The position numbers and the translations under genes are program-made. From IMG/VR virus record IMGVR_UViG_3300019458_000025: a stretch of 64,000 nucleotides of DNA. One strand, written 5' to 3'. How positions within the stretch are numbered: the stretch's first letter is position 1; each line of letters opens with the position of its first letter. This stretch comes from an uncultured virus (IMG/VR IMGVR_UViG_3300019458_000025) (lineage: Duplodnaviria; Heunggongvirae; Uroviricota; Caudoviricetes). The notes below the pieces were generated by a model. That model was given only the letters and a program-made list of their open reading frames with translations, did no database searches and was not told the origin of the DNA. This document shows positions 784 through 64,000 of this stretch, piece after piece.

Positions 784-859
784 ATTCCCGAAGGAGGAAC
801 GGCCTCAGTCGAGTACGCCGACAATGGCCTGGAAGAGGAACGAAGAGGAGAATGGCAGA

Positions 860-22025: not shown

Positions 22026-22259
22026 CTACATCTCGATCTCCTTGGTGACCTTCCACACATGGAGGAGATCTGGGTCCGGATGACCCTGGGCGATGAGTTC
22101 CCGGCGGTAGGCGCGCGCCTTGGCCGCGGTCTCCCATACCGGCGGCTCGTCGAGTTCCTCGACGTCATGCGGGTACTGCCAGGGTTTCTCCACGCCGACA
22201 CCCTCCGGATGGTAGAGGACTTCATAGTACGTGGTCTTGTGCCCCCAGCGTTTGGGCAT
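22026..22259 (-). CDS. Hypothetical protein, N-terminal KRWG motif
   Basis: GAGGTG RBS; MPKRWGH. Confidence 0.7.
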   Translation of the reverse strand: MPKRWGHKTTYYEVLYHPEGVGVEKPWQYPHDVEELDEPPVWETAAKARAYRRELIAQGHPDPDLLHVWKVTKEIEM

Positions 22260-36327: not shown

Positions 36328-36401
36328 GCCGGTGTGGTTCAATAGGAGAACACCTCTTTCGTAAAGAGGAGACGCCGGAGCGTTACCGGCCACCGGCCCC
36401 A
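36328..36401 (+). tRNA. tRNA-Thr(CGT)
   Basis: Cloverleaf, atypical T loop. Confidence 0.78.
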
Positions 36402-36645: not shown

Positions 36646-37077
36646 TTATGTGACCGTAGTGACGAGTTTTGCGAGGTCGCCGGTGTAGACCGAATCCTTG
36701 TAGTATTCAAGCCGACCGGAGATGATGTCATTGATGAACTCGTCATCCCTTAGGTTGACGACGTCCACCTCGACACCATAATCGCGAGCATCCGCGACGA
36801 CGCCTTCCTCGTACGCCTTGGCCTTGACCGGATTGTCGGACAAAATGATGACCGCGAGCGAGATCTGCTCGCATCCCATTTCCGTGAACTCCTGCCGGTA
36901 GGCAAGGATGTCGTCCCATTGTCCGAGTCGCTCGAAAAGCGCGTCCTGGTCGCCGCGTCTGGTGGCGCTAGGAACGCACGGATTGACGCACACGAACTCG
37001 ATTTCTCGATAAAGACGACGCTTTCCCCATCGCTTCCGCGCTTCGACGGCGGGACCCCATCGGACGACAAGCGCCAC
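36646..37077 (-). CDS. KRW-motif hypothetical protein
   Basis: VALVVRWGPAVEARKRWGKRR; start uncertain. Confidence 0.7.
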   Translation of the reverse strand: MALVVRWGPAVEARKRWGKRRLYREIEFVCVNPCVPSATRRGDQDALFERLGQWDDILAYRQEFTEMGCEQISLAVIILSDNPVKAKAYEEGVVADARDYGVEVDVVNLRDDEFINDIISGRLEYYKDSVYTGDLAKLVTTVT

Positions 37078-42269: not shown

Positions 42270-42530
42270 ATGGCGCTGCGACCAGCGGACAGGGAAAACT
42301 TCCAGACCATGCTCCGGGCCGCGGAGAACGGGGACCTCGCCATCATCGAGACCCGGCGCCGGTCGGACGGCAGTTACGTGGCCATGATCGCGGCCGTGTA
42401 CCAGGAGGTCCCGGGAGGCGAGTTCATCATCGTCCCGTTCGGCGAGATGGCCGCTGACGACCCCTACGAGATCTACGAGCCGCCCGCAGGAAAGCCTCCT
42501 TTCGGTCGCAAGCGGTGGCATCCGGGATAG
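42270..42530 (+). CDS. DUF6117-like protein with C-terminal RKRW
   Basis: NFQTMLRAAENGDLA..IVPFG....DPYE.YEPP. Confidence 0.7.
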   Translation: MALRPADRENFQTMLRAAENGDLAIIETRRRSDGSYVAMIAAVYQEVPGGEFIIVPFGEMAADDPYEIYEPPAGKPPFGRKRWHPG

Positions 42531-42643: not shown

Positions 42644-43183
42644 ATGGCCGCGATCGCCGAAAAGGAGAAGCCTCGGGACCTGGACATCAACTCGAACGGG
42701 ATCATCTTCCTCAAGGACCGTGCGCTCGGGGACGCGGCCACGCGCGTCGCGCGGCAGCAGTTCAGGTGGCTAAGGCCAAGCGAGATCCCGCTCCTTTACC
42801 TCTGGGTCGAGGTGAACGCGATCGCCAGAAGCGTCGATCGGCGATTCAAGGTAGTGGCCCTCTTCGACTTCTTAGACGAATACGGAAAACTGCTGGCCGA
42901 GCCCAGGCCAAGGGCCGATATCGTGACCTATTTTGCGCTTCCCGCGATGGGCCGGAAAAGATGGGGGCCGGTCGGCTCCGAGGACATAGCGAGGGAATCC
43001 TGGACGATCCGCCACATGCTCTCGGCCAGTGGCTACTGGTCTAGGATTCCGAACGTAGAGCAAGGCGACAAGGACTTCCAACTGGTCACGGCCGTCCGAG
43101 ATGGGGAAGAGGCGTCGGAGGTCTTGAGACTCACGAACGACTTCATTGTCATGTCGCCCCTCGCGACGATCTGGAAAGATTAA
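42644..43183 (+). CDS. KRW-family hypothetical protein
   Basis: LDINSNGIIFL..MGRKRWGP. Confidence 0.75.
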   Translation: MAAIAEKEKPRDLDINSNGIIFLKDRALGDAATRVARQQFRWLRPSEIPLLYLWVEVNAIARSVDRRFKVVALFDFLDEYGKLLAEPRPRADIVTYFALPAMGRKRWGPVGSEDIARESWTIRHMLSASGYWSRIPNVEQGDKDFQLVTAVRDGEEASEVLRLTNDFIVMSPLATIWKD

Positions 43184-45235: not shown

Positions 45236-45330
45236 GGGGACGGCTGAGGCGCTGGTGTGCCCCTCCGGCTTCAACCCGGGCGGGTCGGTCAAGGCCGACC
45301 GGTGGGTTCGATTCCCATCCGTTCCCGCCA
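45236..45330 (+). tRNA. selC: tRNA-Sec(TCA)
   Basis: 8-bp acceptor, long D stem, CT-TCA-AC loop, long V arm, GCCA. Confidence 0.85.
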
Positions 45331-45695: not shown

Positions 45696-45917
45696 CTACC
45701 GCGGACGCCACCGCTTTCGCGGGTGCTTTTGGCGCTCCGTTTTCAGGATGCGCCCAGTCGGCCCGTCTCGAACGAACGCCATAAGCGCTGTTTGCTCGGC
45801 GAGATCCTTCGCGTACTCGACGGCGTCGTCGTAGTCGTCGAATATCTCGTAGCGATGGTTCGTGGTCGGTTCTACGGCCAGCCACACCTCATAGGGTCCG
45901 CGGTATAATCCCGGCAT
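45696..45917 (-). CDS. Hypothetical protein with C-terminal RKRW
   Basis: MPGLYRGPY..KHPRKRWRPR. Confidence 0.65.
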   Translation of the reverse strand: MPGLYRGPYEVWLAVEPTTNHRYEIFDDYDDAVEYAKDLAEQTALMAFVRDGPTGRILKTERQKHPRKRWRPR

Positions 45918-46676: not shown

Positions 46677-47300
46677 ATGAGCGCGGTCCCGGTCCTTGAG
46701 CGCCCGGCGCTCGTCCTGAACAAGCGCTGGCAGGCCATCCAGGTGACCTCCGTCAAGGAGGCCATCGGACTCGTCTGCAAGGGCAACGCCCGGATCATCG
46801 ACCCGGAGACGTTCCAGGCACATGACCTTGGGTCCTGGGCCGACGTCTCCCGGTCCAGGGAGAAGTTCGAGAAGGCCGTGATCCGGTCGTCGAGGCTGAC
46901 GCTCCTGGCGCCGGAGGTGATCGTCCTCTCGAACTACGACGACCTCGGCCAGCGCTCGGTCGTCTTCTCCCGAAGGAACATCTTCAAGCGGGACAAGTAC
47001 TGCTGCCAGTACTGCGGCAAGCAGTTCAGGTCCGAGCTTGCGATGCACGACCTCACGATCGACCACGTCTGCCCGAAGGCGAAGGGCGGCAAGTCGTCCT
47101 GGGAGAACTGCGTCCTCGCGTGCATCGCCTGCAACAAGAAGAAGGCCGACCGGACGCCGGAGGCCGCGGGCATGAAGCTCAGGAGGCAGCCGAAGAAGCC
47201 CCAGTGGAGCGCGCTCTCGTGCGTCATGCCCGGGAAGCGCCTGAAGTCCTGGGAGCAGTTCATCTCGGACGCCTACTGGGAGGTCGAACTGGAGCCGTAG
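46677..47300 (+). CDS. HNH endonuclease (LVLN/McrA-like family)
   Basis: LVLN..FSRRNIFKRD..CQYCG..TIDHV.P..GG..WENCVLAC..CN. Confidence 0.9.
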   Translation: MSAVPVLERPALVLNKRWQAIQVTSVKEAIGLVCKGNARIIDPETFQAHDLGSWADVSRSREKFEKAVIRSSRLTLLAPEVIVLSNYDDLGQRSVVFSRRNIFKRDKYCCQYCGKQFRSELAMHDLTIDHVCPKAKGGKSSWENCVLACIACNKKKADRTPEAAGMKLRRQPKKPQWSALSCVMPGKRLKSWEQFISDAYWEVELEP

Positions 47301-47374: not shown

Positions 47375-47414
47375 AAGGAATGGCGCTCGTCGAAAGGCGG
47401 GCGCCGTTTCCTTT
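47375..47414 (+). terminator. Terminator closing the tRNA array
   Basis: GGAATGGCGCTCGTC-GAAA-GGCGGGCGCCGTTTCC-TTTT. Confidence 0.7.
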
Positions 47415-47448
47415 TGCCATCAACTGAGAAAATGTTTACAATTGATCC

Positions 47449-47880
47449 GTGGCGATGATCTCGCGTCCGGAAGCCTTCCGCATCCTGAACGACGTCCGGA
47501 GCGCCCTGGCCAATCTCGATCCGAACGACCGGAGCGAGGCGATCCGCGCCGCGCTTATGATCGGATGGGAACTGGCCAGTCTGCTTGTTCTTGTACGAGA
47601 GGAAGAGAAAACACGCAAGATCCCGCTTCGTCGCAAGCGCTGGGGTGAGATGGGCGTAAGCGCAGAGGACGTCCTGGAGATCCTCGACGCGATGGCCAAC
47701 GAGATGGACCAGGCGGAGCCCGTGGAAAAGCAAGACCGGACGACCGTCGCCTTCAAGGTCATCGAGATCGTTCAGGATGCAATCGAGGAGAATCGTCCGG
47801 TTCCCGATTCCCGGAGCCTCATGGGTCTTGCCGTCGCATCGTTCCGGATGGAATGGGGACGCGATCCGCGGGTCGGATGA
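47449..47880 (+). CDS. KRW-motif hypothetical protein
   Basis: LRRKRWGE. Confidence 0.7.
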   Translation: MAMISRPEAFRILNDVRSALANLDPNDRSEAIRAALMIGWELASLLVLVREEEKTRKIPLRRKRWGEMGVSAEDVLEILDAMANEMDQAEPVEKQDRTTVAFKVIEIVQDAIEENRPVPDSRSLMGLAVASFRMEWGRDPRVG

Positions 47881-47886
47881 GGACCG

Positions 47887-48411
47887 ATGGGCGATTACAG
47901 GACGTTTTTCATCGACGGTTTCGGGAACCTTCATTTAGATCACGTAAAAGTCGGGAACCTGGTGGTCGAGCCGTATGGGGCCTTCACGAAAGGTCTGTGG
48001 GAACGGGACAACATGCTTGTGGATCTTTGGGCACACGCCTACAACTCCCTGATCCTCCGCCCGAGCCTGATTCCGCTGAGCGTCCATGCGCGGCGTACCG
48101 CTGACGATCCTCAGGGGCGCGTGAGCGTCGTAGCACTCTTCGACATGTTCAAGGAGTTCGGACGCCGGAAGCGCTGGAAATGGAGGGACGAGCCGCCGGA
48201 GATCCTGGTGAGAGCCTTTCATGTGCTCGCCGACTGGCTCCGGAACGAAGGCCGCGAGGTCCGCGTGAAGACGCCGACGACAAGCTGGCGCTGGGGCGTG
48301 GACGTTCCCGTCCGTTCCGGGCCGGAAGCCTGGGACGTTGCCGACAGGATGGGCGCTTTCATCGAGGGGAGCGTGCTCCGGTCGATCGTGGCCGAGGAAG
48401 GGGTCGGGTAA
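47887..48411 (+). CDS. KRW-family hypothetical protein
   Basis: GAGG RBS; GRRKRWKW. Confidence 0.75.
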   Translation: MGDYRTFFIDGFGNLHLDHVKVGNLVVEPYGAFTKGLWERDNMLVDLWAHAYNSLILRPSLIPLSVHARRTADDPQGRVSVVALFDMFKEFGRRKRWKWRDEPPEILVRAFHVLADWLRNEGREVRVKTPTTSWRWGVDVPVRSGPEAWDVADRMGAFIEGSVLRSIVAEEGVG

Positions 48412-48415
48412 CGGG

Positions 48416-49294
48416 ATGAGGGATGTCTTCGAGGATACGGCCAACGTGAACGCCCATTACTACCTCGATTCCTCCGGCCATGAGATCAGCCGGATGGAAT
48501 TCCTCGGCTACGTCCACGAAGGACAATGGTCGTACATGATCTATGTGGGGGGCGGTTACGTGCCGCTCAAGGTGGCCGTCACCACCGTCAGCCATCGGAG
48601 ACACCATGCTGGAGGAGAAGCCGACGCCATCGAAGCCTTCGAAGAATGGGCGCGGGAAACGCGCCCGGAGGAGATCGGAGAAGGCGAGGACTACGAAAAG
48701 GAGGTTCAGGAAGCCATCGAAGCGGGGGAGGAACCGCCTTCTCCGGAATACGAAGCCCATATCGAGGCCATCCCGGAACGCGCCGGAACCGAACCCGCTT
48801 CGATCGAGAAGGACTTTTACATCGACATCGACGGACAGGTGACGATGGACGGTGTCCTCGTCGGGAACGCCTTGGCCGACGACATCGGACCCGGGCTCAC
48901 CTATACCGATTTCGAACTCCTGAGGCACTGGCGGGATCTCCGCGAACGCATGGATCAGTGGGTGGAAGAGGATCGTCGCATCCCGAAGGGCGTCCTTTAT
49001 GCGCACCGCTTACCCGGGAAAACCGAAGGACGTCTCGGCTTCGGGCTTCGTTTCGGCGCCACCGGGCGTGGCAAGCGCTGGGGTGAAGGGCTTTTGGAGC
49101 ATCTCGGGCGGAACCTCGAAACGCTCGTCCAGAAGCTCATGCGGGTCGAGAAGGTCGAGTCGCAAATCGGCCGCGAGGACGACGAGTACGTGCTTCGCAT
49201 CGAAGACCCCGACTTCGACGGGTTCTCGTTCGTGAGTTTGGCTGCCTACCTAAGACGCCACCAGCTTTTGGAGTATGTGGTCGAGCCCGTATGA
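48416..49294 (+). CDS. KRW-family hypothetical protein
   Basis: GRGKRWGE. Confidence 0.75.
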   Translation: MRDVFEDTANVNAHYYLDSSGHEISRMEFLGYVHEGQWSYMIYVGGGYVPLKVAVTTVSHRRHHAGGEADAIEAFEEWARETRPEEIGEGEDYEKEVQEAIEAGEEPPSPEYEAHIEAIPERAGTEPASIEKDFYIDIDGQVTMDGVLVGNALADDIGPGLTYTDFELLRHWRDLRERMDQWVEEDRRIPKGVLYAHRLPGKTEGRLGFGLRFGATGRGKRWGEGLLEHLGRNLETLVQKLMRVEKVESQIGREDDEYVLRIEDPDFDGFSFVSLAAYLRRHQLLEYVVEPV

Positions 49295-49686
49295 AGACGC
49301 AAAGCCTCGGATCGCTCTGGGAAGACAACGCCATCCAGTTCACCCGCCTGGTCGCGGAGGTCTGGGCTGCCGGACTCACGCCCGGCCAATGGCAGACGCT
49401 CCTCGACGAACTCGAAATGTCGGACCAGCAGTTGACCGATGTTTTCGAAAAGGCCGAGGAGGAATGGGAGAGGCTCAAGGAACAGATCACCCGGCGCCGG
49501 AAACGCTGGCTTCCCGGGGGACTGCCGGTCAACGACCTCTACGCCAAGATCCTCACGATCATCAAGAACTACGGCCTTTTCGTCGATCAGGCCACGGCCA
49601 TCGGGGAGTCGATGGATGTGAAGCGGAAAGAACTCCGGGAGCTACTCGACCGCGCGGCCGAACATTCCATTCTGGCCGGAGACTAG
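49291..49686 (+). CDS. KRW-motif protein with two similar helical halves
   Basis: RRRKRWL in the linker. Confidence 0.75.
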   Translation: MKTQSLGSLWEDNAIQFTRLVAEVWAAGLTPGQWQTLLDELEMSDQQLTDVFEKAEEEWERLKEQITRRRKRWLPGGLPVNDLYAKILTIIKNYGLFVDQATAIGESMDVKRKELRELLDRAAEHSILAGD

Positions 49687-49687
49687 G

Positions 49688-50530
49688 ATGGCAAGGCTCG
49701 ACGACCTCGAAGTGGACGAAGTCCTCGACGACGCGCGCCGCGCGGGCGTCCTGGACATGATCTGGGACTGGTCGGACGCCTATGGGTGGCCGCGCCCGGA
49801 AACGCCGGAGGAAGTGCTCGCGTGGCTTCTTGAGATGATCCGCCATGAGGTGCGCGCGGCCGAATCGGTCTGGTCGGCCTACGAGATCGCCGAGGCCAGG
49901 GAGCGGGTCGCTCTTTTCGAGGAGGTCGTCCGGCGCCTCCGGTCGCTTGAGGTGATCCCGGCGGTCCCGCCATGGGTCGAGGAGCGGCGCCGATGGGGGA
50001 TATCCGGGATGGGCGACCTCGGCATTTTAGAGATCACGCCGAGGGGGGCCGTCCTGATCGACGACATGCCGTGGACGACCTATCGGGGCGATCCGCTCCA
50101 TGCAGGCGATGTCCACGGGGACCCCCGGCTCGTTCGGGATCTCCAGCCCGAAGCCCGGAGGCTCATGCGGCTCTGGACGGAGGTCGTGCCGGAGACGCGC
50201 CACTCGATCTTTGCTCCCATCGCCCGATGGTTCGACGACGAGCCGAAAGGGCGCGTATCCGTCGCCCTTTTCATGCATCCCGTGGAGCCCATGGCCAGGA
50301 AGCGATGGGGAGAGCGGCATGCCAGCCACGCGGAGATCCTTGCCCTTTTCGAGGAATTGGCTGACCGCGTCCAAACGGACATGGGGCGCGAAGCCGAGGT
50401 CAGCCACTGGTACGGGGTCCCCATTCTTGTCGTGGACGTCCGGAGCGGCCGGGACGCTCGGAAGGTCGTCAGCTTTCTCCACGAAGCGACGAAGTTCACG
50501 GAGATCGAAAGGTATGTCCAGGTCTTTTGA
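49688..50530 (+). CDS. KRW-family hypothetical protein
   Basis: ERRRWG and ARKRWG. Confidence 0.75.
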   Translation: MARLDDLEVDEVLDDARRAGVLDMIWDWSDAYGWPRPETPEEVLAWLLEMIRHEVRAAESVWSAYEIAEARERVALFEEVVRRLRSLEVIPAVPPWVEERRRWGISGMGDLGILEITPRGAVLIDDMPWTTYRGDPLHAGDVHGDPRLVRDLQPEARRLMRLWTEVVPETRHSIFAPIARWFDDEPKGRVSVALFMHPVEPMARKRWGERHASHAEILALFEELADRVQTDMGREAEVSHWYGVPILVVDVRSGRDARKVVSFLHEATKFTEIERYVQVF

Positions 50531-50584
50531 AGATCAGGGGCTACCCGGACGCCCCTAGCAGGGGGGGGGACGGAGGAGATCCGC

Positions 50585-50947
50585 ATGCTCGCGACGATTC
50601 TGGCGCCTATCGAGAAGAAATTCAGGGACCTGCTTGATCTCATGGACGTGGACGCAAGCATCGACGAGAGCCGCTTAAAGACGGTCTTCATCTCGACCGA
50701 ACACGACCCGGGGGTGGGCATTCGCGGCGGACCGGTCTTCACGCTATGGTGGGCTCTGGGAACCGGAGTCGAGCGGAAACGCTGGCCGACGCGGATCAAG
50801 GAGGAAGATTTCCCCACGGACATCTTCGTGGTCGAGGAGGATTGGCTCGTCCCGAAGGAGGAGTGGCAGGACGAGATGGACGTGATCCTGGCGAACCGCA
50901 AAATCATCTTCGACGCGATGATGAATTGGTACATGAGGCCGTATTGA
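50585..50947 (+). CDS. KRW-motif hypothetical protein
   Basis: ERKRWP; start uncertain. Confidence 0.7.
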   Translation: MLATILAPIEKKFRDLLDLMDVDASIDESRLKTVFISTEHDPGVGIRGGPVFTLWWALGTGVERKRWPTRIKEEDFPTDIFVVEEDWLVPKEEWQDEMDVILANRKIIFDAMMNWYMRPY

Positions 50948-50956
50948 GGACTGCCC

Positions 50957-51436
50957 GTGCGGGACTACACCTTCAGCATCACAGAGCAGGGCGACGTTTT
51001 CGTGAACGGAGCGTTTTTCTCGGACGTCCGAGACGAGGAGATCATCCAGCAGCTTTTGGGACGCGATCGGACCGCCGCCCGAAAGTGGGATCTGATGAAC
51101 GATTCTCTTGAGCAAGAACCGTTCGTTTCCTTCTTGACCTTCTATCGTCCCGAGGGGCAGGAGGCCCCGCAAATCGAGCTAAGAATCCCGTTCGAAGCCC
51201 GGGACGCCGGAAAGCGGTGGGGTGCGGGAGCAAGGCGCGCTCTGGCGACGGCGCTCGACAGCATGACCTGGGCGCTTTTTGACATCTATGCGATCTCGGG
51301 CGGATACGAGCGCACGAAGAATGGATTCGACGTCACCCTCGACATATCACCGGACCAGAATGTGGCCTCGCTTGCACTTATCCTCCGAGCGATGATCCGA
51401 AAATACCGTCTAGGACGGTCGATGGTGGCACGATGA
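50957..51436 (+). CDS. KRW-family hypothetical protein
   Basis: AGKRWGA. Confidence 0.75.
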   Translation: MRDYTFSITEQGDVFVNGAFFSDVRDEEIIQQLLGRDRTAARKWDLMNDSLEQEPFVSFLTFYRPEGQEAPQIELRIPFEARDAGKRWGAGARRALATALDSMTWALFDIYAISGGYERTKNGFDVTLDISPDQNVASLALILRAMIRKYRLGRSMVAR

Positions 51437-51900
51437 AAAACGCGCTCGTCATCGTCCACCTGTCAAGCCTGGACTCCTACACCTGGCAGGCCGGTGAGGA
51501 CTTGGGCTACGAACTCGCGGCGACAATCGGAGATGCCATCCGCGAGCATCCGGGACCAGTCTACATCATCGACCAGGGATGGGAGTACGCGGGACGGCAG
51601 AGCAAGCCCAGGATGGAAGTCCTGGAAAGCGTCAAGCGCCGGTCGGCGACGCTGCCGCCGGTCTCCTGGATCAAATACGACGAGGCCGATCCGGACGACC
51701 CGGACTGGCCGGAATTCCTTGCCATCCTCACCGATCGGCTCCGTAATGACGGCGTCGGCAAGGTCGAGGTCGGGGGCATCTGGTACGATCCGGCGTTCGA
51801 AAGCGGGTGCGCGACCGAGGTCTATCTTGGCCTCCGGAAACACTTTCCCACGACCGTGAACCGGGACCTCGTGGGGTGCGAGAGCGACATCGAGGAATAG
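51433..51900 (+). CDS. Isochorismatase/cysteine-hydrolase-like fold protein
   Basis: ALVIVH..PVYII..LRNDGVGKVEVGG......CATEV. Confidence 0.55.
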   Translation: MKNALVIVHLSSLDSYTWQAGEDLGYELAATIGDAIREHPGPVYIIDQGWEYAGRQSKPRMEVLESVKRRSATLPPVSWIKYDEADPDDPDWPEFLAILTDRLRNDGVGKVEVGGIWYDPAFESGCATEVYLGLRKHFPTTVNRDLVGCESDIEE

Positions 51901-51909
51901 GGGGGCACC

Positions 51910-52290
51910 GTGCGGACGAGCAAGTACTTCGAGATCACCGAGAACACGGTCAAGCCGCTCGCACCGGAGTACGCCTGGCTCATGGTGGAACAACTCGATG
52001 ACCTGTCATACGTGGGCTTCGATACGGACCCCCTGGGTACCGATCTGGTCCATCTTGTTGATGAGGATGGCCGAGTGTTCGAGCCCGTAACATTGGGCGT
52101 CCCGATCGCCTCCGATGGCTACCTCGAAGGCTGGAGGTTCAGGGGTACATTCGTCTACTGGGACCAGGAACGCGGCTGGGTGGATTGGAAGGATCTTCCG
52201 AGGGAGGTCCAGAAGCGTCTCCTCCCTCATCGCGCCAAGCGCTGGATTCCGGAAGATCGGCCCATTCGCGAACCGAAACGGAGGCGCTGA
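51910..52290 (+). CDS. KRW-motif hypothetical protein
   Basis: RAKRWI near C-terminus. Confidence 0.7.
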   Translation: MRTSKYFEITENTVKPLAPEYAWLMVEQLDDLSYVGFDTDPLGTDLVHLVDEDGRVFEPVTLGVPIASDGYLEGWRFRGTFVYWDQERGWVDWKDLPREVQKRLLPHRAKRWIPEDRPIREPKRRR

Positions 52291-52973
52291 TGGCCGTCGT
52301 CCACCTGGGCAACGCCGTCTTCATCGACAAGACCCCGATCACGCCCGCGGACTGGCGTGGCGAACGTCGGCTCCGGAAACGATGGGGAACGCCCACCCAG
52401 CGCGCCATCGAGTGGCTCGACGAGGCCATGGCCCGCGGGGAGAAGGTCTCGATCAATCCCTGGGTCGAGTTCCCGAGCCTGGAACGCGCCTATGTCGGCG
52501 TCGCCCTCATGATGGACGGCCAGGTCCGCGATACGATCACGCTCAAGGAAGTGCCTTACTTCGAGCCGATGGCGCCCTATCTACCGTACGATCTTATCGA
52601 CTCCGAACTGAAAGACGCCAAGCCCTGGATGTTCGAGGAGATGGGATGGGTGGAGGTGAGGGATAAGGACGACTGGGAGTCGCTCCTGGAGGCCCACAAG
52701 ACCGCCTACAAGAAGGAGGACGAGGACGACCGCTACGAATACGATGGCCCCGGCCTCTACGACGGACGCGACATGACGAAGGCGTACGACTCCGTCGAGG
52801 ACTACGAAGAATCGGTGCTTGAGGACCAGGCGACGGAACTCATCGACTACATGTTCTCGGGCGGCCTCCTCGCGTCCGACCTCAAGGGCGACGAGTGGGC
52901 CAAGGCGTTCGAGAAGCTTGCGCTTGAGGCGGCCGAGGAATCAGGAGAGGAGTACGAAGAGGAATCCGACTGA
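52290..52973 (+). CDS. Highly acidic KRW-motif protein
   Basis: GGAGG RBS; LRKRWGT. Confidence 0.78.
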   Translation: MAVVHLGNAVFIDKTPITPADWRGERRLRKRWGTPTQRAIEWLDEAMARGEKVSINPWVEFPSLERAYVGVALMMDGQVRDTITLKEVPYFEPMAPYLPYDLIDSELKDAKPWMFEEMGWVEVRDKDDWESLLEAHKTAYKKEDEDDRYEYDGPGLYDGRDMTKAYDSVEDYEESVLEDQATELIDYMFSGGLLASDLKGDEWAKAFEKLALEAAEESGEEYEEESD

Positions 52974-52983
52974 AGTACTACCG

Positions 52984-53463
52984 ATGAAGAAGAAGCGGGT
53001 CGAAATCATTCCAGCCGACCGGATCGAAGGGAGCGCCATCTACGTGGTGATGGAAGCTCCGATGCCGGGATGGTTCTGGGAGCATGGCGACCCGAGCGAA
53101 GAGGTGCTTCTGAAGATCCACAAGCGCCTGAGATCCGGCGGTTGGGGACGCGAGAACATCGACACCATCTATTCCTACTTCCAGGAGGCAGTCGAGCCTA
53201 CGTTCGACCTTCCAAAGGGCGGCTTCCGGAAGCGCTGGGGAGAGGCGGCCGTGGTCCCGGACGCCCGCTTCTGGGTCTGGCTGGACAGCGCCTATCTCAT
53301 CGAGAATCCAAGGTTGCTGGAAGACCTGCCGCGGCTCCGCGGGGAAGGCTTCATCATCGACTGGAGGATTTCCGCCGATCGGGGACCGCTCAAGGGAGAG
53401 GAATGGGGACCCGGCACGATGATTTACGATTATTTTGTCGTCGGTCCTCCAGAACGGGAATGA
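52984..53463 (+). CDS. KRW-motif hypothetical protein
   Basis: FRKRWGE. Confidence 0.72.
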   Translation: MKKKRVEIIPADRIEGSAIYVVMEAPMPGWFWEHGDPSEEVLLKIHKRLRSGGWGRENIDTIYSYFQEAVEPTFDLPKGGFRKRWGEAAVVPDARFWVWLDSAYLIENPRLLEDLPRLRGEGFIIDWRISADRGPLKGEEWGPGTMIYDYFVVGPPERE

Positions 53464-53514
53464 TCATCCAGATAACATCGACACCGTCTGCTCCTACTTC
53501 GAGGAGGGCGTCCC

Positions 53515-54153
53515 ATGAGAAAGCTGGAGATGCTCGACGGGATCATCGCGGAACTGCAAAGATCCCCGAATGCTGAGGAGCAGACGATAGGGGAGCTTCT
53601 CGCAAGCGTCCGGACAGGTGGAGGAGGATTTCCGGAGATCACCTCGACCTTGGACGACCTCATTGCAGTGGCCCGTTCGATCAGGCGGGAGATCGGAGCC
53701 TCTAAACGGGGGGGGGCAGGAGTGAACTACGAGGTCTTCGTCGAAGCACCGGCCTCCATCGACGAAACGGGCGAGGTCTCCATCTCGACAGGCGAGCATT
53801 TTTATGCCGCAAGCGCCTTCGGCACGACGAAGGCGATCGGCGACTATCTGCGCGAGCAGGGATTCGGCGGCCTTGGCCGGTACGTGCGATCGCTCAGGAA
53901 ACGAATGGTCGCGTACCTATCCGGTATGGAAGTACCCGCGGAACTCAGGCGGCGCGGATACGGCAGCATGCTCGTTTACTCGCTGCTCCGCGAGTTCGAA
54001 CGCCTGAACATCCAAACGGTGGTGCTGCATGCGAGCCCGTCCCGCGGGATCTCGATGGACTCGCTGGCGGCCTTCTACAAGAGGTTCGGCTTTCGCGACG
54101 TCGATTGCTGCGCCGAGGATGTCTGGCCGGTCATGAGGCTGGACCTGAAATGA
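53515..54153 (+). CDS. GNAT-family acetyltransferase (C-terminal domain)
   Basis: MEVPAELRRRGYGS..FYKRFGF. Confidence 0.8.
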   Translation: MRKLEMLDGIIAELQRSPNAEEQTIGELLASVRTGGGGFPEITSTLDDLIAVARSIRREIGASKRGGAGVNYEVFVEAPASIDETGEVSISTGEHFYAASAFGTTKAIGDYLREQGFGGLGRYVRSLRKRMVAYLSGMEVPAELRRRGYGSMLVYSLLREFERLNIQTVVLHASPSRGISMDSLAAFYKRFGFRDVDCCAEDVWPVMRLDLK

Positions 54154-54668
54154 CGCGGACCGAACGGACCAGCCACTTCTTCATCCACGACTACGGGGTC
54201 GCCTCGTTCACCGTTCCCGAGGGGAAGACGACGGTCCTCGGACGGGTCGGGATCGACGACATCGAGCCGGATCTTTTGGAAGGCGAACGAGGGCTGGCGA
54301 AGCGTTGGAAGGAGACGAGCGACCTCCTCCGGACGAACCGGATCAGGTCCAAAGTGCGTCTCTTCGCCGAGCGGCATTGGGATTTCGACTATGGGTTCCT
54401 CTGGCTTTCCTTCAGCTTCGACCGCGGCCGTGCCCGGAAAAGGTGGGCGCCAGGGCTTCGACCCGAAGACCTGGACGAGGCCGTACGCCGGTTGGCTTAT
54501 CTTATCGAGATGATCCCGCATCGCAGCGCGAGGATCGACAAGTCCCCGGACAAGTGGATCTTCGACATCGAGATCACCGACGAGGAACCCGCGGCACGGT
54601 TCTTCGACGTGTTCTTCCGAGTGCTTTCGCACAACCCCAGCCTCGTGGAATACTTGAGGGGAGCCTGA
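54150..54668 (+). CDS. KRW-family protein, paralog of 33961..34479
   Basis: High visible similarity. Confidence 0.8.
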   Translation: MTRTERTSHFFIHDYGVASFTVPEGKTTVLGRVGIDDIEPDLLEGERGLAKRWKETSDLLRTNRIRSKVRLFAERHWDFDYGFLWLSFSFDRGRARKRWAPGLRPEDLDEAVRRLAYLIEMIPHRSARIDKSPDKWIFDIEITDEEPAARFFDVFFRVLSHNPSLVEYLRGA

Positions 54669-54669
54669 G

Positions 54670-54909
54670 ATGCGCAAAGCGCGCGATCTGTCGCCGCACG
54701 AACTGGCGGAGGTCGTTCAGATGGTTCAGGATCTCCTCTATCTCGACATTGACGAGCGCGGTCCCGCCTTCGAGTGGTACAACCGCGACAAGTTCTTCGA
54801 CGAGTACATGTTCCGGATGCTTCACGAACTGATGGAGAGGTTCGGGCTCCGTCCGGGGCGCCCGAGGACCCGGCGCGGACCTGCGGGAAAGCGGTGGAGG
54901 CGTCCGTGA
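54670..54909 (+). CDS. KRW-motif hypothetical protein
   Basis: C-terminal AGKRWRRP. Confidence 0.7.
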   Translation: MRKARDLSPHELAEVVQMVQDLLYLDIDERGPAFEWYNRDKFFDEYMFRMLHELMERFGLRPGRPRTRRGPAGKRWRRP

Positions 54910-55226
54910 CGAAGTACCAGGAATGGGTCTGGTCGGCGGCGATCGACATCGCCAGATGGAGCGGCCCCGCTTTTGAGCGGATGATAGGGGATTACGTCAG
55001 CGATTCCTACTGGTATACGGTCGAGGACCGGCACGAAACCGTGCTCCGGGAAACGCGGCATCCGCCCACGTTGGAGGACATCGCCAAGGGAGTCGGACCG
55101 CTCGATACCTGGGAGGCCATCAGAAAGTTCGCCGTGTGGCTCGCGATGACCCGCGATTTGGCCTGGGCGGTCAATAGTCTGGTCGGAAGAACGGGACGGA
55201 AACGCTGGACGCCCATGGAGTGGTGA
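54906..55226 (+). CDS. KRW-motif hypothetical protein
   Basis: C-terminal GRKRWTP. Confidence 0.7.
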   Translation: MTKYQEWVWSAAIDIARWSGPAFERMIGDYVSDSYWYTVEDRHETVLRETRHPPTLEDIAKGVGPLDTWEAIRKFAVWLAMTRDLAWAVNSLVGRTGRKRWTPMEW

Positions 55227-55228
55227 TC

Positions 55229-55690
55229 ATGGCTTTCGCGCGGAAACGCTGGGGACGAGGCGCTCTTGAGGCCATGGCCGACGATCTGGCCAGGGAGCGC
55301 AATAAGGCGGACGAAGCCCTTTCCGAGCTTATGGAGATCGAAGAACCGGACGTAGAGACGGTCCAGGAGATCGGCATCCTGGAAGGAACGATCGACATCT
55401 TCAGTCAGATCATCCAGGCCATCCAGCAGCAAGCGAGCAGACAGGACTTCCTGAAGATGGTCGATCTGCTGCTTCGCATGGCCGTGAAAGGCCAACGGGC
55501 GGTCACGGGCTATGACGGACAGGCCGAGCATTGGCGCGGATACGCCACGAACATCGCCTGGAATCCTCGGGCGTACGCCAAAATCGGCTTCCAGAGCGCC
55601 GAAATCGACGCCCTACTCAAGCTGAACCGGGATTACGATCTCGGTCTTGACCGGGTCCTCGTCGAGGAAGCGAGCCATTACATCTATTGA
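55229..55690 (+). CDS. KRW-motif hypothetical protein
   Basis: N-terminal ARKRWGR. Confidence 0.72.
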   Translation: MAFARKRWGRGALEAMADDLARERNKADEALSELMEIEEPDVETVQEIGILEGTIDIFSQIIQAIQQQASRQDFLKMVDLLLRMAVKGQRAVTGYDGQAEHWRGYATNIAWNPRAYAKIGFQSAEIDALLKLNRDYDLGLDRVLVEEASHYIY

Positions 55691-55995: not shown

Positions 55996-56475
55996 ATGTA
56001 CCTGAACGAGTTCCTGGGGCGTCTGGGCACGATGATCACGACGACGACCCACACTCACTCGAAGGAGACGACCTACGACTCGGACGGCTTCAGCCCCTTC
56101 GAGTGCTCCTACTACCAGGAGCCGGTGATCGACGACCCGGAGAACCTGGAGGACCGGGGGTTCCCCCAGGTCCCGGACTCCCCCTTCGAGCAGATCCCGC
56201 CCTTCAAGGCCCCCAAGCGACCGCCGAAACCGCCTCCTCCGCCTCCGGTCAAGCCGCCGGTCCATATCGTGGCGCCGCTTCCGCCGAGAAAGCCGCGCAA
56301 GCTGCCGCCCGCGGTGCCCCCGGTGCCGCCCGCGCCGCCCCCGGAGGAGATGTGCTGCGTCCCGCTTGAGCGCGTCCAGGATCTTGCCAAGACCCTCCGG
56401 GAACTGGCCGACGAGCTTGACGAGGTCTGCAAGGCCCCGGGTGGGGGCGCCGTCCGCGAGTCCGAGATCTCGTAA
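55996..56475 (+). CDS. MY-start Pro-rich protein with SPFEQIPPF module
   Basis: Paralog of 56487..56873. Confidence 0.75.
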   Translation: MYLNEFLGRLGTMITTTTHTHSKETTYDSDGFSPFECSYYQEPVIDDPENLEDRGFPQVPDSPFEQIPPFKAPKRPPKPPPPPPVKPPVHIVAPLPPRKPRKLPPAVPPVPPAPPPEEMCCVPLERVQDLAKTLRELADELDEVCKAPGGGAVRESEIS

Positions 56476-56486
56476 CGAGGAAGATC

Positions 56487-56873
56487 ATGTACACCAATAT
56501 CGGCGACCTCGGCCAGGGCCGGACGCCCCGCGCCTTTCCTCCCGAGATCCTCATGGACACGGACGAGATGAGCCCGCTCGACATCGACGAACTCGTGAAT
56601 CCAGAGCCCGTGATCTTCGAGGAGCCCAAGGAACACGTCGAACGCGGGATTCCCGGAGTCCCGACCTCCCCGTTCGAGCAGATCCCGCCGTTCGAGCCGG
56701 GATGGGGGGTCGAGGAGGCCGAAGGCGCGCCGCCGGAGATCAAGAAGGAGATGTGCTGCATCCCCATGTCCCGGATGAGGCGCGTGGCCGACGTCATCAA
56801 GAAGCTGGCCGACCAGATCGACGACATCTGCGAGACGCCCGCCGGGGACGAGGTCGCGTCGGAGGAGCTATAG
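56487..56873 (+). CDS. MY-start protein with SPFEQIPPF module
   Basis: GAGG RBS; EMCC.P motif shared with upstream ORF. Confidence 0.78.
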   Translation: MYTNIGDLGQGRTPRAFPPEILMDTDEMSPLDIDELVNPEPVIFEEPKEHVERGIPGVPTSPFEQIPPFEPGWGVEEAEGAPPEIKKEMCCIPMSRMRRVADVIKKLADQIDDICETPAGDEVASEEL

Positions 56874-57063: not shown

Positions 57064-57330
57064 GTCAACCACCCCGCCCTAAAGGGCGGGGCTTGTGAAA
57101 GGAGGTGTATCACAAGCCCACGTTGACCAGACTAAGCTCGAAGGATGTACAGCTTCGAGCTACGTTCGGCGGGTCATGACACCGGCGGATGCGTTGCCAG
57201 TCCGCCGCTCTGTCGTCCGGCATTAAAAGGCTGAGGGTGTAGGCCGGTGTGCCGGGCATGACAAGCCCGCCGAACATTGTCGAGGCGAACTTTACCCCGA
57301 AAGGGGCGGCCCCGTTATGGGGCATTTTTT
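57064..57330 (+). ncRNA. omegaRNA scaffold (HEARO-like) upstream of iscB
   Basis: GTTGACCAGACTAAG..CTACGTT..CCAGTCC..CTCTG..CATTGTCGAGG pattern. Confidence 0.75.
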
Positions 57331-58667
57331 GACGGAGTAGCGATGCAGCGGGTATTTGTTCTTGGCATGGATGGAAAGGCTCTCATGCCCTGTCGTCCAT
57401 CGAGAGCCAAGGAACTGCTCAAGGCCGGGAAAGCCGTTGTATTTCGTCGCTATCCGTTCACGCTCATCATGAAGAAGCAGACCGGGAAACAGGTTCAGCC
57501 GGTCGCCTTCAAGGTTGACCCGGGCAGCAAAATCACAGGCGGCGCGTTGGTGGCGGACTTCAAGCGCGGCAAGGAGGTCATATGGGCGGCTGAAATCGAG
57601 CACCGGGGACAGGCGGTCCGGGACAATCTTCTGTCGCGAAGGGCCTTGCGCCATGGGAGAAGGAACCGCAAGACGCGGTATCGGAAACAGAGATTCCTGA
57701 ATAGAACGCGCCCGGAAAGCTGGCTCCCTCCAAGCTTGAAGAGCCGGGTTTCAAACATCGCAACGTGGCTCTCGCGCCTCCGGCGCTGGAGTCCGATTTC
57801 ATCGGTTGCCATGGAACTGGTCAAGTTCGACACCCAGAAGATGAAAAACCCTGAAATTTCCGGCGTCGAGTACCAGCAAGGGACGCTCGCGGGATATGAG
57901 GTTCGCGAGTATCTCTTGGAGAAATGGGGTCGGAAATGCGCCTATTGCGGGGTCGAGAATGTCCCCTTAGAGGTGGAACATATTATTCCCAAGAGCCGGG
58001 GAGGTTCAAACGGGGTCTCAAATCTCGCGGTTTCCTGCGAGCCATGCAACAAGACGAAAGGAAATAGCACGGCGGCGGAATTCGGGCATCCCGATGTTCA
58101 GGCGAAGGCGGAAACGCCGCTCAAGGACGCCGCCGCCGTCAACGCAACCAGGTGGAGGCTGTTCGAGAGATTGAAGAAGGCCGGTCTGCCCGTTGAATGT
58201 GGAACGGGAGGCCGGACGAAGTTCAACCGTACGGTCCAAGGCTATCGAAAGGCGCATTGGACGGATGCCGCATGTGCCGGGGTGTCGGGGAGATTCGTAC
58301 GGCTTGACCCCCTCATGCTCCCCATTCTCATCAGAGCGGTTGGGCACGGAATCCGTCAGATGTGCGGCACGGACAGGTTCGGCTTTCCAAAGCGCCATCG
58401 GATGCGCCAGAAGTCCCACCATGGCTTTCAGACGGGCGATATAGTGCGCGCCGTGGTTCCGAACGGGAAAAGGAAAGGGACGCACATAGGCGTTGTTCTG
58501 TGTCGGGCCTCTGGAAGCTTTGATATTAAAACCAGGGGCGGACGCGCGGCGGGCATCAGTTACAGACATTGCGTGGTTGTTCAGCGGGCTGATGGATATT
58601 CGTATGCTGTAGGAGGCGGCGCTTCCTTCCCCGGCCTGAAGGCTGGGGCTTCCGCGCCGTCCATTTG
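57064..58667 (+). mobile_element. Non-autonomous IS200/IS605-family IscB element
   Basis: Left end GTCAACCACCCCGCCCTAAAGGGCGGGGCTTG; right-end hairpin CCCCGGCCTGAAGGCTGGGG; no tnpA inside. Confidence 0.88.
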
Positions 58668-58671
58668 GTGA
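57343..58671 (+). CDS. iscB: IscB RNA-guided endonuclease
   Basis: (P)LMP domain, RuvC-I VDPGSK, Arg-rich bridge helix, ELVKFD, HNH, HWTDAAC. Confidence 0.93.
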   Translation: MQRVFVLGMDGKALMPCRPSRAKELLKAGKAVVFRRYPFTLIMKKQTGKQVQPVAFKVDPGSKITGGALVADFKRGKEVIWAAEIEHRGQAVRDNLLSRRALRHGRRNRKTRYRKQRFLNRTRPESWLPPSLKSRVSNIATWLSRLRRWSPISSVAMELVKFDTQKMKNPEISGVEYQQGTLAGYEVREYLLEKWGRKCAYCGVENVPLEVEHIIPKSRGGSNGVSNLAVSCEPCNKTKGNSTAAEFGHPDVQAKAETPLKDAAAVNATRWRLFERLKKAGLPVECGTGGRTKFNRTVQGYRKAHWTDAACAGVSGRFVRLDPLMLPILIRAVGHGIRQMCGTDRFGFPKRHRMRQKSHHGFQTGDIVRAVVPNGKRKGTHIGVVLCRASGSFDIKTRGGRAAGISYRHCVVVQRADGYSYAVGGGASFPGLKAGASAPSIW

Positions 58672-58886
58672 ACGACCTTGAGTCTCCGCCGAGGAACGAC
58701 GAGAACGCGACCTGGTCCGGGGATCTCAATAACCCCCGGGAGTACGACGCGCTCGTCAATCCGGAGCCCGTCATCTACGAGCAGCCGGAGGGCGAGGACT
58801 GGGAAGACGAAGGTTTTCCGGACGACGCGATTACGCCATTCCAGCAAATCCCGGCGTTCACGGGGGGCCTGGCATTCGTTCTGTGA
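58668..58886 (+). CDS. 3' part of MYVN-start gene interrupted by the IscB element (first two codons at 57058..57063)
   Basis: LVNPEPVI..GFP...TPFQQIPAF module. Confidence 0.7.
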   Translation: MNDLESPPRNDENATWSGDLNNPREYDALVNPEPVIYEQPEGEDWEDEGFPDDAITPFQQIPAFTGGLAFVL

Positions 58887-60419: not shown

Positions 60420-60662
60420 GTGAAAAGGAAGGGCAGGAAGCGCTGGGGGCGCGCGTTCGTGAAGTTCCTCCTGGTCGCGGAAATCGAAGTGGAGAAGTCG
60501 GACGCTGCTCTCGAAGAAGCGCAGGACTTACTGGACAGGTTCCGGGAGACCGTCCGCCCGAGCGCCGAATGGGGTATAACGCTGGCTCGGGCGACCCGCA
60601 AGGATCTGGAGGGAGATCCGGATCTCCTGGTTCACGGAGTCTCCATGTTCGAAACCGACTAG
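60420..60662 (+). CDS. KRW-motif hypothetical protein
   Basis: MKRKGRKRWG. Confidence 0.7.
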   Translation: MKRKGRKRWGRAFVKFLLVAEIEVEKSDAALEEAQDLLDRFRETVRPSAEWGITLARATRKDLEGDPDLLVHGVSMFETD

Positions 60663-60670
60663 GGGGGGCC

Positions 60671-61009
60671 ATGAGCGAGTACTGGGACGACATCGAGACG
60701 ATCGCCAAGGAGATCCGGGAAGAGTACCCCGATCCGATTCGCGACCATAACAGGCGCGTCGAGCGCGTGAGCGAGGACGTGGACGGCTCGTCCTGGATCA
60801 TCTACTACGACCAGAACGAGACCGTACTCAACGAAACCGAGAACGAGCCGGACGATAGCGACGTCGCGGCCATGGCCGGACCCGATCGGGGCTGGAAGGA
60901 TCTCCGGATGATTGCCGCCTACCTGGCGATGGAGGGCGACGTCTGGCAGACGCTTAACGAACTCGACAAGGAAGCCGAGGAATCCGAAGAGGTCGAGGAA
61001 GGATCGTAA
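60671..61009 (+). CDS. Acidic protein resembling Ocr-type DNA mimic
   Basis: 112 aa, strongly acidic; SEDVD....IIYY; acidic tail. Confidence 0.55.
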   Translation: MSEYWDDIETIAKEIREEYPDPIRDHNRRVERVSEDVDGSSWIIYYDQNETVLNETENEPDDSDVAAMAGPDRGWKDLRMIAAYLAMEGDVWQTLNELDKEAEESEEVEEGS

Positions 61010-62506: not shown

Positions 62507-62731
62507 ATGTACCTGAACGTGGTGGAAAGGTTTATGGGACAGACGGCGCAGCCGACGACGACGCTCTTCGACAGCGACCGGCACACGATCGTGGACCACG
62601 ATCCTCTCGTGGACCCGGAAGGAGTGCTCCTCGATCCGCGAGAACCCGAAGATCTCGGATTTCCCTTTCAGCCCGTGTCGCCGTTCGACCAGGGCTACGA
62701 GGTGATCAATCCCGTGGAATCGTTCAGGTAA
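62507..62731 (+). CDS. MY-start protein with diverged SPF module
   Basis: LVDPEGVL..EDLGFP..PVSPFDQ. Confidence 0.68.
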   Translation: MYLNVVERFMGQTAQPTTTLFDSDRHTIVDHDPLVDPEGVLLDPREPEDLGFPFQPVSPFDQGYEVINPVESFR

Positions 62732-62962: not shown

Positions 62963-63292
62963 ATGATGAAACTCTTCGCGGACAAGGTTCGGGAGATGAT
63001 CGAAGTGGACGACGATGTCGTCGTCGCCTACGGGTATACCTTGGACCGGAAAACGCTTCTGATCTACTTTCATGAATGGCGTCTGGTGCGCGAGACCATC
63101 CATCACCGCCGGGGCGGCGAAGACGTGTCCGAGATCGAAGAGAGCGAGTTTTTCGAGCCTGAGTTCTTCTTTCGGAACGTGAAGCGCTGGTACCTCGGGG
63201 AACCGGGGCGCGGGCTAAACGAGAACCTGGCCGCGCTCTTCGAGACGTTCGGACGGCCGCTTTCGACGACCCCGGGCGGGAGATACCCGTAA
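62963..63292 (+). CDS. KRW-motif hypothetical protein
   Basis: NVKRWY. Confidence 0.68.
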   Translation: MMKLFADKVREMIEVDDDVVVAYGYTLDRKTLLIYFHEWRLVRETIHHRRGGEDVSEIEESEFFEPEFFFRNVKRWYLGEPGRGLNENLAALFETFGRPLSTTPGGRYP

Positions 63293-63903: not shown

Positions 63904-64000
63904 ATGGCGAGACTGAAGCGGAAGCGCTGGGGCCATTTCGAGGGCGGTCTCATCGACGACGGCGCTTTTCATCCGGTGTTCTCCGGCGACGACTATTACT
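63904..64000 (+). CDS. KRW-motif protein, 3'-truncated
   Basis: MARLKRKRWGHFEGG.. Confidence 0.6.
   Translation, partial: MARLKRKRWGHFEGGLIDDGAFHPVFSGDDYY

Follow-up and report, generated by a model that had tools for sequence, protein, structure and literature searches.

Lys-Arg-Trp (KRW), often followed by glycine, recurs in small proteins encoded by the genome of an uncultured virus of the Caudoviricetes (IMG/VR record IMGVR_UViG_3300019458_000025), of which a 64-kb stretch with 62% GC, hereafter the window, was analysed. The genes carrying this motif are concentrated in a block at 47449-55690. A gene call by a codon-usage model trained on the long open reading frames (ORFs) of the window gave 94 proteins with 14,793 amino acids (aa), with approximate start positions. 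Genes typical of very large phages are present, including those for a Ro60-like protein, a Ser/Thr kinase, S-adenosylmethionine (AdoMet) decarboxylase and several HNH endonucleases. ARAGORN found 46 transfer RNA (tRNA) genes and a transfer-messenger RNA (tmRNA), which Rfam confirmed while adding a match to the selenocysteine tRNA (tRNA-Sec). Because of the tmRNA, the 46 tRNAs and the PHROG families and other phage-type genes, the host of this phage is almost certainly a bacterium.

Distribution and enrichment of KRW

The six-frame translation of the window contains 29 copies of KRW, 26 on the plus strand and 3 on the minus strand. Coding frames account for 27 of these: 26 lie in frame in 25 of the 94 called proteins and 1 in a truncated ORF starting at 63904; the other two, at 7791 and 54014, fall outside any called frame. 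Composition predicts 1.49 copies in the 94 proteins, and 2,000 within-protein shuffles gave a mean of 1.46 (standard deviation 1.2) and a maximum of 6 against the 26 observed; the initial annotation had estimated about one chance hit. No other tripeptide is as over-represented as KRW (z ~20), and the permutations and near forms of KRW are rare in the window (RKW 4, KWR 1, WRK 1, RRW 2, KKW 1). Within the block, 14 of 16 genes carry the motif, with 15 copies compared with 0.31 in shuffles. Outside the block there are 11 copies in 11 of 78 called genes (1.2 expected), the truncated ORF at 63904 being additional, and the motif is absent from the 14 genes at 10.4-21.6 kb. A bacterial locus of 17.3 kb and 61.5% GC (L005, Aliiruegeria), a weak match in species genomes that was rejected as spurious and used as a composition control only, has one KRW in six frames. 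About a quarter of the small phage proteins carry the motif, and most of these have no detectable similarity to one another.

These counts, made on our own gene call, confirm the 14 block carriers and all 11 further carriers named by the initial annotation, and add a twelfth, an HNH protein at 46677. The copy in this protein (NKRWQ, an atypical context) is probably due to chance, and that at 62963 (VKRWY) is doubtful as a genuine motif. The N- and C-terminal examples first quoted are correct, but the usual form was overstated as RKRWG: of the 14 block carriers, 5 have RKRWG and 7 have KRWG. Lysine is encoded by AAG (18) and AAA (8), and arginine by CGC (14), CGG (6), CGA (4) and AGA or AGG (3), with one CGT inferred as the remainder of the CGN counts. 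Because all but two of the window copies are in coding frame and none of the synonymous positions is fixed, the constraint acts on the protein and not on the DNA, as had been proposed from codon variation.

The carriers, mostly small proteins without Pfam matches (24 of them also gave no match in NCBIfam or PADLOC), are listed below together with the two block genes that lack the motif. Genes are named by their first coordinate in the window, and nucleotide (nt) positions are those of KRW or its variant. Family A is a domain shared by several carriers, and L001 is a second genomic locus; both are described in the next section.

Genes of the block:
47449-47880 (+), carrier of 143 aa, internal LRRKRWGEM (nt 47635-47643); family A match around the motif only
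47887-48411 (+), family A member of 174 aa, GRRKRWKW (nt 48169-48177)
48416-49294 (+), 292 aa, acidic N-terminal domain (N-domain) followed by a family A domain, GRGKRWGEG (nt 49073-49081); orthologue L001:2-616 retains KRW
49291-49686 (+), carrier of 131 aa, RRRKRWLPG (nt 49501-49509); orthologue L001:622-1017 retains KRW
49688-50530 (+), 280 aa, N-domain fused to a family A domain, ARKRWGER (nt 50300-50308); the N-domain ends PPWVEERRRWG, an RRW variant (nt 49988-49996); L001 has the parts as separate genes, L001:2754-4103 (three N-domain repeats) and L001:4103-4693
50585-50947 (+), carrier of 120 aa, ERKRWPTR (nt 50777-50785); orthologue L001:4703-5068 retains KRW
50957-51436 (+), family A member of 159 aa, AGKRWGAG (nt 51212-51220)
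51433-51900 (+), isochorismatase/nicotinamidase-like fold (from the ESM Atlas), without the motif, as is its orthologue L001:6581-7087
51910-52290 (+), carrier of 126 aa, HRAKRWIPE (nt 52237-52245), 14 residues from the C-terminus; orthologue L001:7084-7461 retains the motif
52290-52973 (+), carrier of 227 aa with a net charge of -30, RLRKRWGTP (nt 52377-52385)
52984-53463 (+), carrier of 159 aa, GFRKRWGEA (nt 53230-53238) in a 14-residue loop insert
53515-54153 (+), GNAT acetyltransferase, without the motif, as is its orthologue L001:8735-9172
54150-54668 (+), family A member of 172 aa, motif RARKRWAPG (nt 54438-54446); a second copy, AKRWK (residues 51-53, nt 54300-54308), is the separate conserved helix Trp of the family and not the motif
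54670-54909 (+), carrier of 79 aa, ends PAGKRWRRP (nt 54889-54897)
54894-55226 (+), carrier of 110 aa, ends GRKRWTPMEW (nt 55200-55208)
55220-55690 (+), carrier, likely start ATG at 55229 giving MAFARKRWGRG (nt 55244-55252); nothing usable in the ESM Atlas

Genes elsewhere in the window:
9210-10085 (+), E2-like protein (UQ_con, HPN...C) of 291 aa, ends SPKRWSAP (nt 10065-10073)
10087-10341 (+), carrier of 84 aa, starts MSKPRKRKRWSPE (nt 10108-10116)
22026-22259 (-), carrier of 77 aa, starts MPKRWGHK (nt 22245-22253)
33961-34479 (+), family A member of 172 aa, RARKRWGRG (nt 34243-34251)
36646-37077 (-), carrier of 143 aa, EARKRWGKR near the N-terminus (nt 37027-37035)
42270-42530 (+), DUF6117 protein of 86 aa, tail GKPPFGRKRWHPG up to the stop (nt 42510-42518)
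42644-43183 (+), family A member of 179 aa, MGRKRWGPV (nt 42956-42964)
45696-45887 (-), carrier of 63 aa, a weak gene call, ends HPRKRWRPR (nt 45708-45716)
46677-47300 (+), HNH endonuclease, NKRWQ (nt 46722-46730)
60420-60662 (+), carrier of 80 aa, starts VKRKGRKRWGRAF (nt 60438-60446)
62963-63292 (+), protein of 109 aa, NVKRWYLG (nt 63182-63190), the doubtful copy
63904-64000 (+), ORF cut by the window end, starts MARLKRKRWGHF (nt 63922-63930)

Conservation, mobility and kinship of the carriers

L001, a 14-kb metagenome contig (58.6% GC) reached via the family A profile, is syntenic with the block at ~50% amino-acid identity. Its six frames contain 25 KRW, 24 of them on the gene strand, and 22 of its 32 genes (a count that includes three genes added by hand) carry 23 copies, compared with 0.65 expected and at most 6 in 2,000 shuffles. 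These copies are often at the extreme end of the protein (for example, proteins ending GRKRWKA, KKRWAP, RKRWEPE and RRKRW). Ten orthologue comparisons between the window and L001 span overall identities of 33-69%. KRW is retained at the aligned place in 7 of them, with flanks 29-67% identical over 17-24 residues; a variant (LRW, KKW) is present in 2 and the motif lies elsewhere in 1. Because KRW is retained where its flanks have diverged, the alignments indicate that the motif is maintained by selection. Non-carriers are likewise the same in both genomes (the isochorismatase-like 51433, the GNAT 53515, the helix-turn-helix (HTH) protein 55734 and the family of 55996 and 56487), and since conserved non-carriers stay non-carriers, the motif appears to be selective.

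The family of 55996 and 56487 is a second paralogous family, conserved in both genomes and without KRW, with members at 55996-56475, 56487-56873, 58668-58886 and 62507-62731 in the window and at 11379-11840 and 11844-12236 in L001. It features the peptide SPFEQ[IVF]PP[FY] and a Cys-Cys...Cys segment. No relatives were retrieved from IMG/VR with 49688, protein P0007, the 52290 pair, the HTH pair or a 48-base stretch of the window end, and tblastn of 52290, 54150 and 42270 against a collection of isolated phages gave no match. Word-based protein searches with 49688 and 42270 each retrieved the query alone.

Across the 49 copies in the window and L001, the motif takes the form [GAP]-[RK]-[KR]-K-R-W with G or x-P next. 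Arg occupies position -1 in 26/49 copies, and R, A, G, P and M are preferred at positions -2 to -4, while position +1 is Gly in 22/49 and position +2 is Pro in 14/49. Overall, in 39/49 copies the Trp is followed directly by G or P, has P two residues on or is the last residue of the chain. Gly and Pro make up 25.7% of the flanks compared with 12.9% of the background (p = 3e-14), and hydrophobic residues are depleted. Fourteen copies lie ≤8 residues from the C-terminus, a zone that holds 5.9% of positions, 2 lie at 9-20 residues from the C-terminus, 5 lie ≤12 residues from the N-terminus and 28 are internal. The sequence context of the motif is flexible and exposed. Homologues show the variants RRW, LRW, KKW, MRW and MKW, so that conservation falls in the order Trp > Arg > Lys, which fits a Trp acting as anchor.

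Some carriers have homologues without the motif. The protein encoded at 42270 matches DUF6117 (PF19612) with 53.4 bits (cutoff 27) over residues 1-77, and its KRW tail GKPPFGRKRWHPG forms the last 13 residues, beyond the matched part; three alphaproteobacterial plasmid homologues, inspected out of 87 matching records, end differently or earlier and have no KRW tail. In the 52290 family (12 sequences), KRW is present in 7 members and MRW or MKW in 2; the entire ~30-residue segment bearing the motif is missing from the three most distant members. The terminal copy in 54894 (GRKRWTPMEW) corresponds to GKKRWAPREW at the end of the orthologue L001:9169-9483, and the paralogue at 60671-61009 has an acidic tail. 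In 52984, KRWG lies in a loop insert that is missing from the L001 orthologue, which has KRWG in a 19-residue insert in another loop, ~40 residues further on. These comparisons indicate that the motif moves independently of the fold, being gained, lost and relocated, which is the usual behaviour of short linear motifs. With its tails, loop inserts and relocation within one orthologue pair, KRW is, as proposed, a portable protein-level element, and is neither a DNA repeat nor merely the signature of a single family. Gain, loss and loop relocation of a motif among orthologues have rarely been documented so clearly in phage proteins.

The motif is also appended to a second recognisable fold. The protein encoded at 9210 matches UQ_con (PF00179) with 35.9 bits (cutoff 27), over profile positions 46-108 only, has the active-site sequence HHPNIFTGTVCLG with the HPN...Cys motif, and is predicted to be a ubiquitin-conjugating enzyme E2 domain protein. 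Both this match and that of DUF6117 are above the Pfam gathering score, in support of the two fold assignments of the initial annotation. The E2 domain is eukaryote-like, and no E1 or ubiquitin-like gene was recognised within the window.

All-against-all BLAST and profile comparison place 7 of the 25 window carriers in family A, a domain of ~165 residues (33961, 42644, 47887, 50957, 54150 and the C-terminal halves of 48416 and 49688). Members are 16-20% identical to 54150, except for the pair 33961 and 54150 (58-59%), and KRW is the sole invariant run across the seven. A motif-masked full-length profile matches these seven proteins and four L001 genes, and a fifth L001 gene (L001:5068-5562) was recognised via the identical protein P0044; the other carriers score no better than non-carriers. 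The family A profile was searched exhaustively against 1.84 billion representatives, giving 43 matches at E ≤ 0.001. Six representatives stand for the seven proteins of the window itself, and 12 are full-length homologues of ~164-180 residues from other assemblies, 10 with KRW, 1 with LRW and 1 without. The remaining 25 are giant proteins that match ~30 N-terminal profile positions only and were set aside as a likeness of hairpin pattern; the three that were checked are DUF7507/DUF11 immunoglobulin (Ig)-repeat adhesins. No entry for family A was found in Pfam, PHROGs, NCBIfam or PADLOC, and the family is undescribed. An AlphaFold2 (AF2) model of 54150 (predicted local distance difference test (pLDDT) 80.7) has a β-hairpin-rich N-terminal half and a ferredoxin-like C-terminal half. 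The motif follows strand 83-91 and precedes helix 105-120, where confidence within the chain is lowest (mean pLDDT 60), and in family A it is predicted to form the loop after the first strand of the C-terminal half. The model had no Foldseek match at E ≤ 0.001 and a best VIA-align Z of 6.9, to a generic ferredoxin-like half, and a model of 52290 had no match in PDB or BFVD.

Two smaller domains also recur among the carriers, the N-domain type of 49688 and the type of 54894 and 60671. Each of the three N-domain units in L001:2754-4103 ends PPWxxx[RK][KR][KR]WG. The carriers were initially described as unrelated and mostly acidic. The first description stands for the remainder, which have no detectable similarity, but not for the seven members of family A or the two recurring domain families; the second holds in the window, where the median isoelectric point (pI) is 5.3 for carriers and 6.6 for non-carriers, but in L001 non-carriers are acidic too. 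A distance of 70-78 residues separates the motif from the C-terminus in 12 of the 26 window copies. Family A accounts for seven of these; the others, which include three KRW-start proteins of 77-84 aa, have no detectable family A similarity (the genes concerned are 10087, 22026, 60420, 47449 and 52984, and 8497 in L001). The idea that the small KRW-start proteins are stand-alone C-terminal halves of family A, prompted by the ~72 residues they have after the motif, found no support: motif-masked profiles of the family A halves match family A only, and hhalign gives the small N-terminal carriers a probability of <1% against family A, the same as controls.

A docking tag and its alternatives

Enrichment in two genomes, constraint at the protein level, selection, portability, exposed context and conservation of the Trp favour a short linear docking motif. 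We hold, with about even confidence, that KRW is a docking or address tag for one common receptor. The Trp would be the anchor residue in a receptor pocket, and the basic residues before it may contact an acidic surface or rim of the receptor. A single receptor could then bring many diverse small accessory proteins of this phage lineage, most of them acidic, together at one place. Our best guess, by analogy, is that this place would be an assembly specified by the phage, either an infection compartment or the interior of the head as it forms, in which case the carriers would be co-ejected; a hub of the host is the alternative. More tentatively, and with considerable doubt, KRW(G) may be a position-independent address code for a sorting route encoded by the phage, in which one phage receptor would read a basic-Trp tag resembling a nuclear localisation signal (NLS) anywhere accessible on the protein and load dozens of unrelated effectors into a place built by the phage, such as an infection compartment or, for co-injection, the inside of the head. 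Such a cargo signal of a bacterial virus would differ from that of T4, which is N-terminal and cleaved.

Several points weigh against a docking tag. No obvious peptide-binding hub was seen in the window, and no receptor, protease, compartment or virion link for the motif was found. The motif has been read in two genomic loci, and its N-terminal cases depend on our own choice of start codon. The public gene call of 55220 starts past the motif; in the L001 orthologue, which starts MRIKGRKRWGKG, there is no Met at the position of the public start and RKRWG is conserved in frame. In family A the motif lies within a folded domain, where it may be a ligand-binding or structural loop and not a tag, and the AF2 models were built from small alignments, of 7 (54150) and 12 (52290) sequences. 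Finally, a sigma-70-like site (TTGCCA-17-TACAAT, 10 of 12 positions) at 47414-47442 (+), the only match between 46.5 and 57.5 kb, sits in the 149-nt gap directly upstream of the first block gene. From this site, of a kind no more frequent than in shuffles, the block could be transcribed early, which would fit packaging into the virion less well. Co-folding of the adjacent pair 54894 and 55220, run without controls, scored 0.00 against a mark of 0.32 and gives no answer either way.

Short signals of several kinds resemble the motif. Monopartite NLSs, including the KR-aromatic ligands of the minor site of importin-alpha, have a basic cluster, sometimes with an aromatic residue, are exposed and independent of position, and are read by one receptor. 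The resemblance to an NLS pointed out in the initial annotation stands in sequence alone (a basic cluster plus an aromatic residue on varied proteins), but the tmRNA and phage-type genes point to a bacterial host, and no importin-like, ARM- or HEAT-repeat protein was seen in the window. Cargo-loading peptides of encapsulins are short terminal peptides on unrelated cargo that dock inside a shell with the HK97 fold; their sequence differs from KRW, and they are usually at one terminus only.

The capsid targeting sequence (CTS) of phage T4 is, according to PMC5694885 (citing Mullaney and Black 1996), a 10-20-residue N-terminal propeptide on internal proteins and Alt that is removed by the prohead protease. 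As described there, the CTS is a short peptide common to different phage proteins that brings them to the prohead and can be transferred to foreign proteins. KRW differs in its three-residue core, its unrelated sequence and its position, with 5 of 49 copies near the N-terminus, 14 near the C-terminus and 28 internal, so it is not an N-terminal propeptide. Like the CTS it occurs on different families: on UQ_con and DUF6117 proteins, on family A and on a dozen or more further proteins that show no detectable mutual similarity. By analogy, among described systems the motif is closest in kind to the CTS but is not a member of that type. In phiKZ-like giant phages, the same source (PMC5694885) describes paralogous ejection or inner-body proteins, such as gp53 and gp54 of SPN3US, in which tandem, strongly diverged paralogues retain a short peptide and a three-residue motif marks one functional class. 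Those motifs are S/A/G-x-E or A-x-E, and the cut removes long propeptides, whereas KRW is basic-aromatic, is often at the extreme C-terminus and also occurs outside a paralogue family. Neither KRW nor its variants fit the x-x-Glu protease motif of giant phages (L/I-x-E, S/A/G-x-E).

New here are the motif, its free positioning and family A. In a full-text literature search for 'KRWG', none of the matches listed concerns a phage tag, judged by title and start of the abstract. A shared, transferable tag would sort a large part of the small genes that lack known function, of which huge phages carry hundreds, into one functional class, and would serve as an experimental handle, whether as a pull-down peptide, a reporter tag or the site of a loss-of-function point mutation. 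Should it prove to be a cargo signal, phages would have a second type of such signal, one independent of position in the protein, and the tag would be a ready tool for phage-based protein delivery.

A different function for the same peptide would be that of a hook for nucleic acids or other polyanions, in which Lys and Arg hold phosphates, the Trp stacks and acidic effector domains are tethered to the phage genome, the nucleoid or RNA, much as with arginine-rich motifs or AT-hooks. Free position in the protein would be expected of such a hook and is seen, and known arginine-rich RNA-binding peptides contain functional Trp. Many copies are strongly basic (RRRKRW, RKRKRW, RGRARKRWGRG), with a local net charge of up to +8, Arg is enriched 1.5-fold in the flanks and five carriers lie among the tRNA genes. 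We nevertheless consider a hook unlikely. The carriers are acidic overall, with net charges down to -30, which is unusual for nucleic-acid binders, the net charge around the motif is only 0 to +2 in 17 of 46 listed copies, and a strict Trp followed by Gly or x-Pro is more like the ligand of a defined pocket than like a patch of charge. No repeated element in RNA or DNA that could be its partner was seen, although none was sought.

Recognition by an enzyme, either as a cleavage site of a phage (prohead) protease or as a modification sequon, is quite unlikely. The motif is often at domain borders: the repeats of L001:2754-4103 end KRWG, KKWG or LRW, and RRWG lies at the junction of the two domains of 49688. 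Cleavage after Trp would also release short N-terminal leaders (MPKRW/G, MAFARKRW/G, MRTKRW/G), and three-residue protease motifs mark many internal head proteins of T4 and phiKZ-like phages, diverged paralogues among them (PMC5694885). However, the Trp is followed by ≤8 residues in 14 of 49 copies and ends the protein in two of these (RRKRW and PRKRW), so that cleavage there would remove almost nothing, a cut in family A would split a domain that is folded in the model, and the window has no protease gene. Candidate modifying enzymes are the block GNAT, which is conserved within the block in both genomes and is itself without the motif, the E2-like enzyme and the Ser/Thr kinase of the window. 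Acetylation of the Lys or conjugation of a ubiquitin-like protein to it is disfavoured because the Lys is the least conserved residue (L, M or R in variants), and a kinase site because only 3 of 26 window copies have Ser or Thr after the motif.

That the motif has no common function, being a relic of one diverged family with a KRWG turn or an easily arising structural capping motif, is very unlikely. Seven window carriers and five L001 genes do form one family with KRW as its invariant core, the recurrent 70-78-residue spacing extends to three small proteins that start with the motif, and a helix often follows it. Against a relic stand the negative profile and hhalign results for those small proteins, the attachment of the motif to the independently derived domains UQ_con and DUF6117, and its retention despite diverged flanks. 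A structural relic would also hardly account for gain, loss and relocation, including the shift of the motif from one loop to another within one pair of orthologues. A signal in DNA or messenger RNA that translates as KRW by chance (for example, a ribosome-binding or recombination element AARCGNTGG) is almost certainly not the explanation: although the codons of the C-terminal class are often 11-24 nt before the next gene start, 35 of 49 copies have no start close downstream, 27 of 29 window copies are in the coding frame with 2 in the other five frames, and all synonymous positions vary, including CGN versus AGR. A ribosome-binding role for the C-terminal copies was separately rejected; the spacing between these copies and the following gene start varies irregularly (-40 to 125 nt), and the majority have no start close by.

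Other features of the window

The tRNA genes lie at 25333-46621, all on the plus strand within 21 kb and with small ORFs interspersed, and an extra tRNA at 36328-36398 was seen by Rfam alone. Within the arginine tRNA array, a tRNA with anticodon TCA at 45236-45330 (+) matches the selenocysteine family RF01852 (65.6 bits; gathering threshold 47). Called genes end in TGA (39), TAG (38) or TAA (17), with no sign of recoding. The tmRNA lies at 14816-15203 and has the tag AKDNVLQFRKSGAPAFRALAA. A Ro60/TROVE protein with a vWA domain (10915-12666, +) is 30% identical to a Halogranum tailed virus protein, and Rfam reported no Y-RNA-like family beside this gene at gathering thresholds. The window start truncates a collagen-like protein with Gly-x-y repeats (1-783, +); next comes a 1490-aa protein (824-5296, +) with GT2, TPR, methyltransferase and GT1/GT4 domains. 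A HEARO RNA (RF02033, 164.5 bits) at 57064-57295 (+) lies directly before a 464-aa ORF at 57277-58671 (+), which was missed by the gene call, has RRXRR and HNH domains, and has a GC content at third codon positions (GC3) of 0.67, below that of its neighbours. From these parts, the RNA and the ORF together are recognised as an IscB-type RNA-guided nuclease element in a phage genome.

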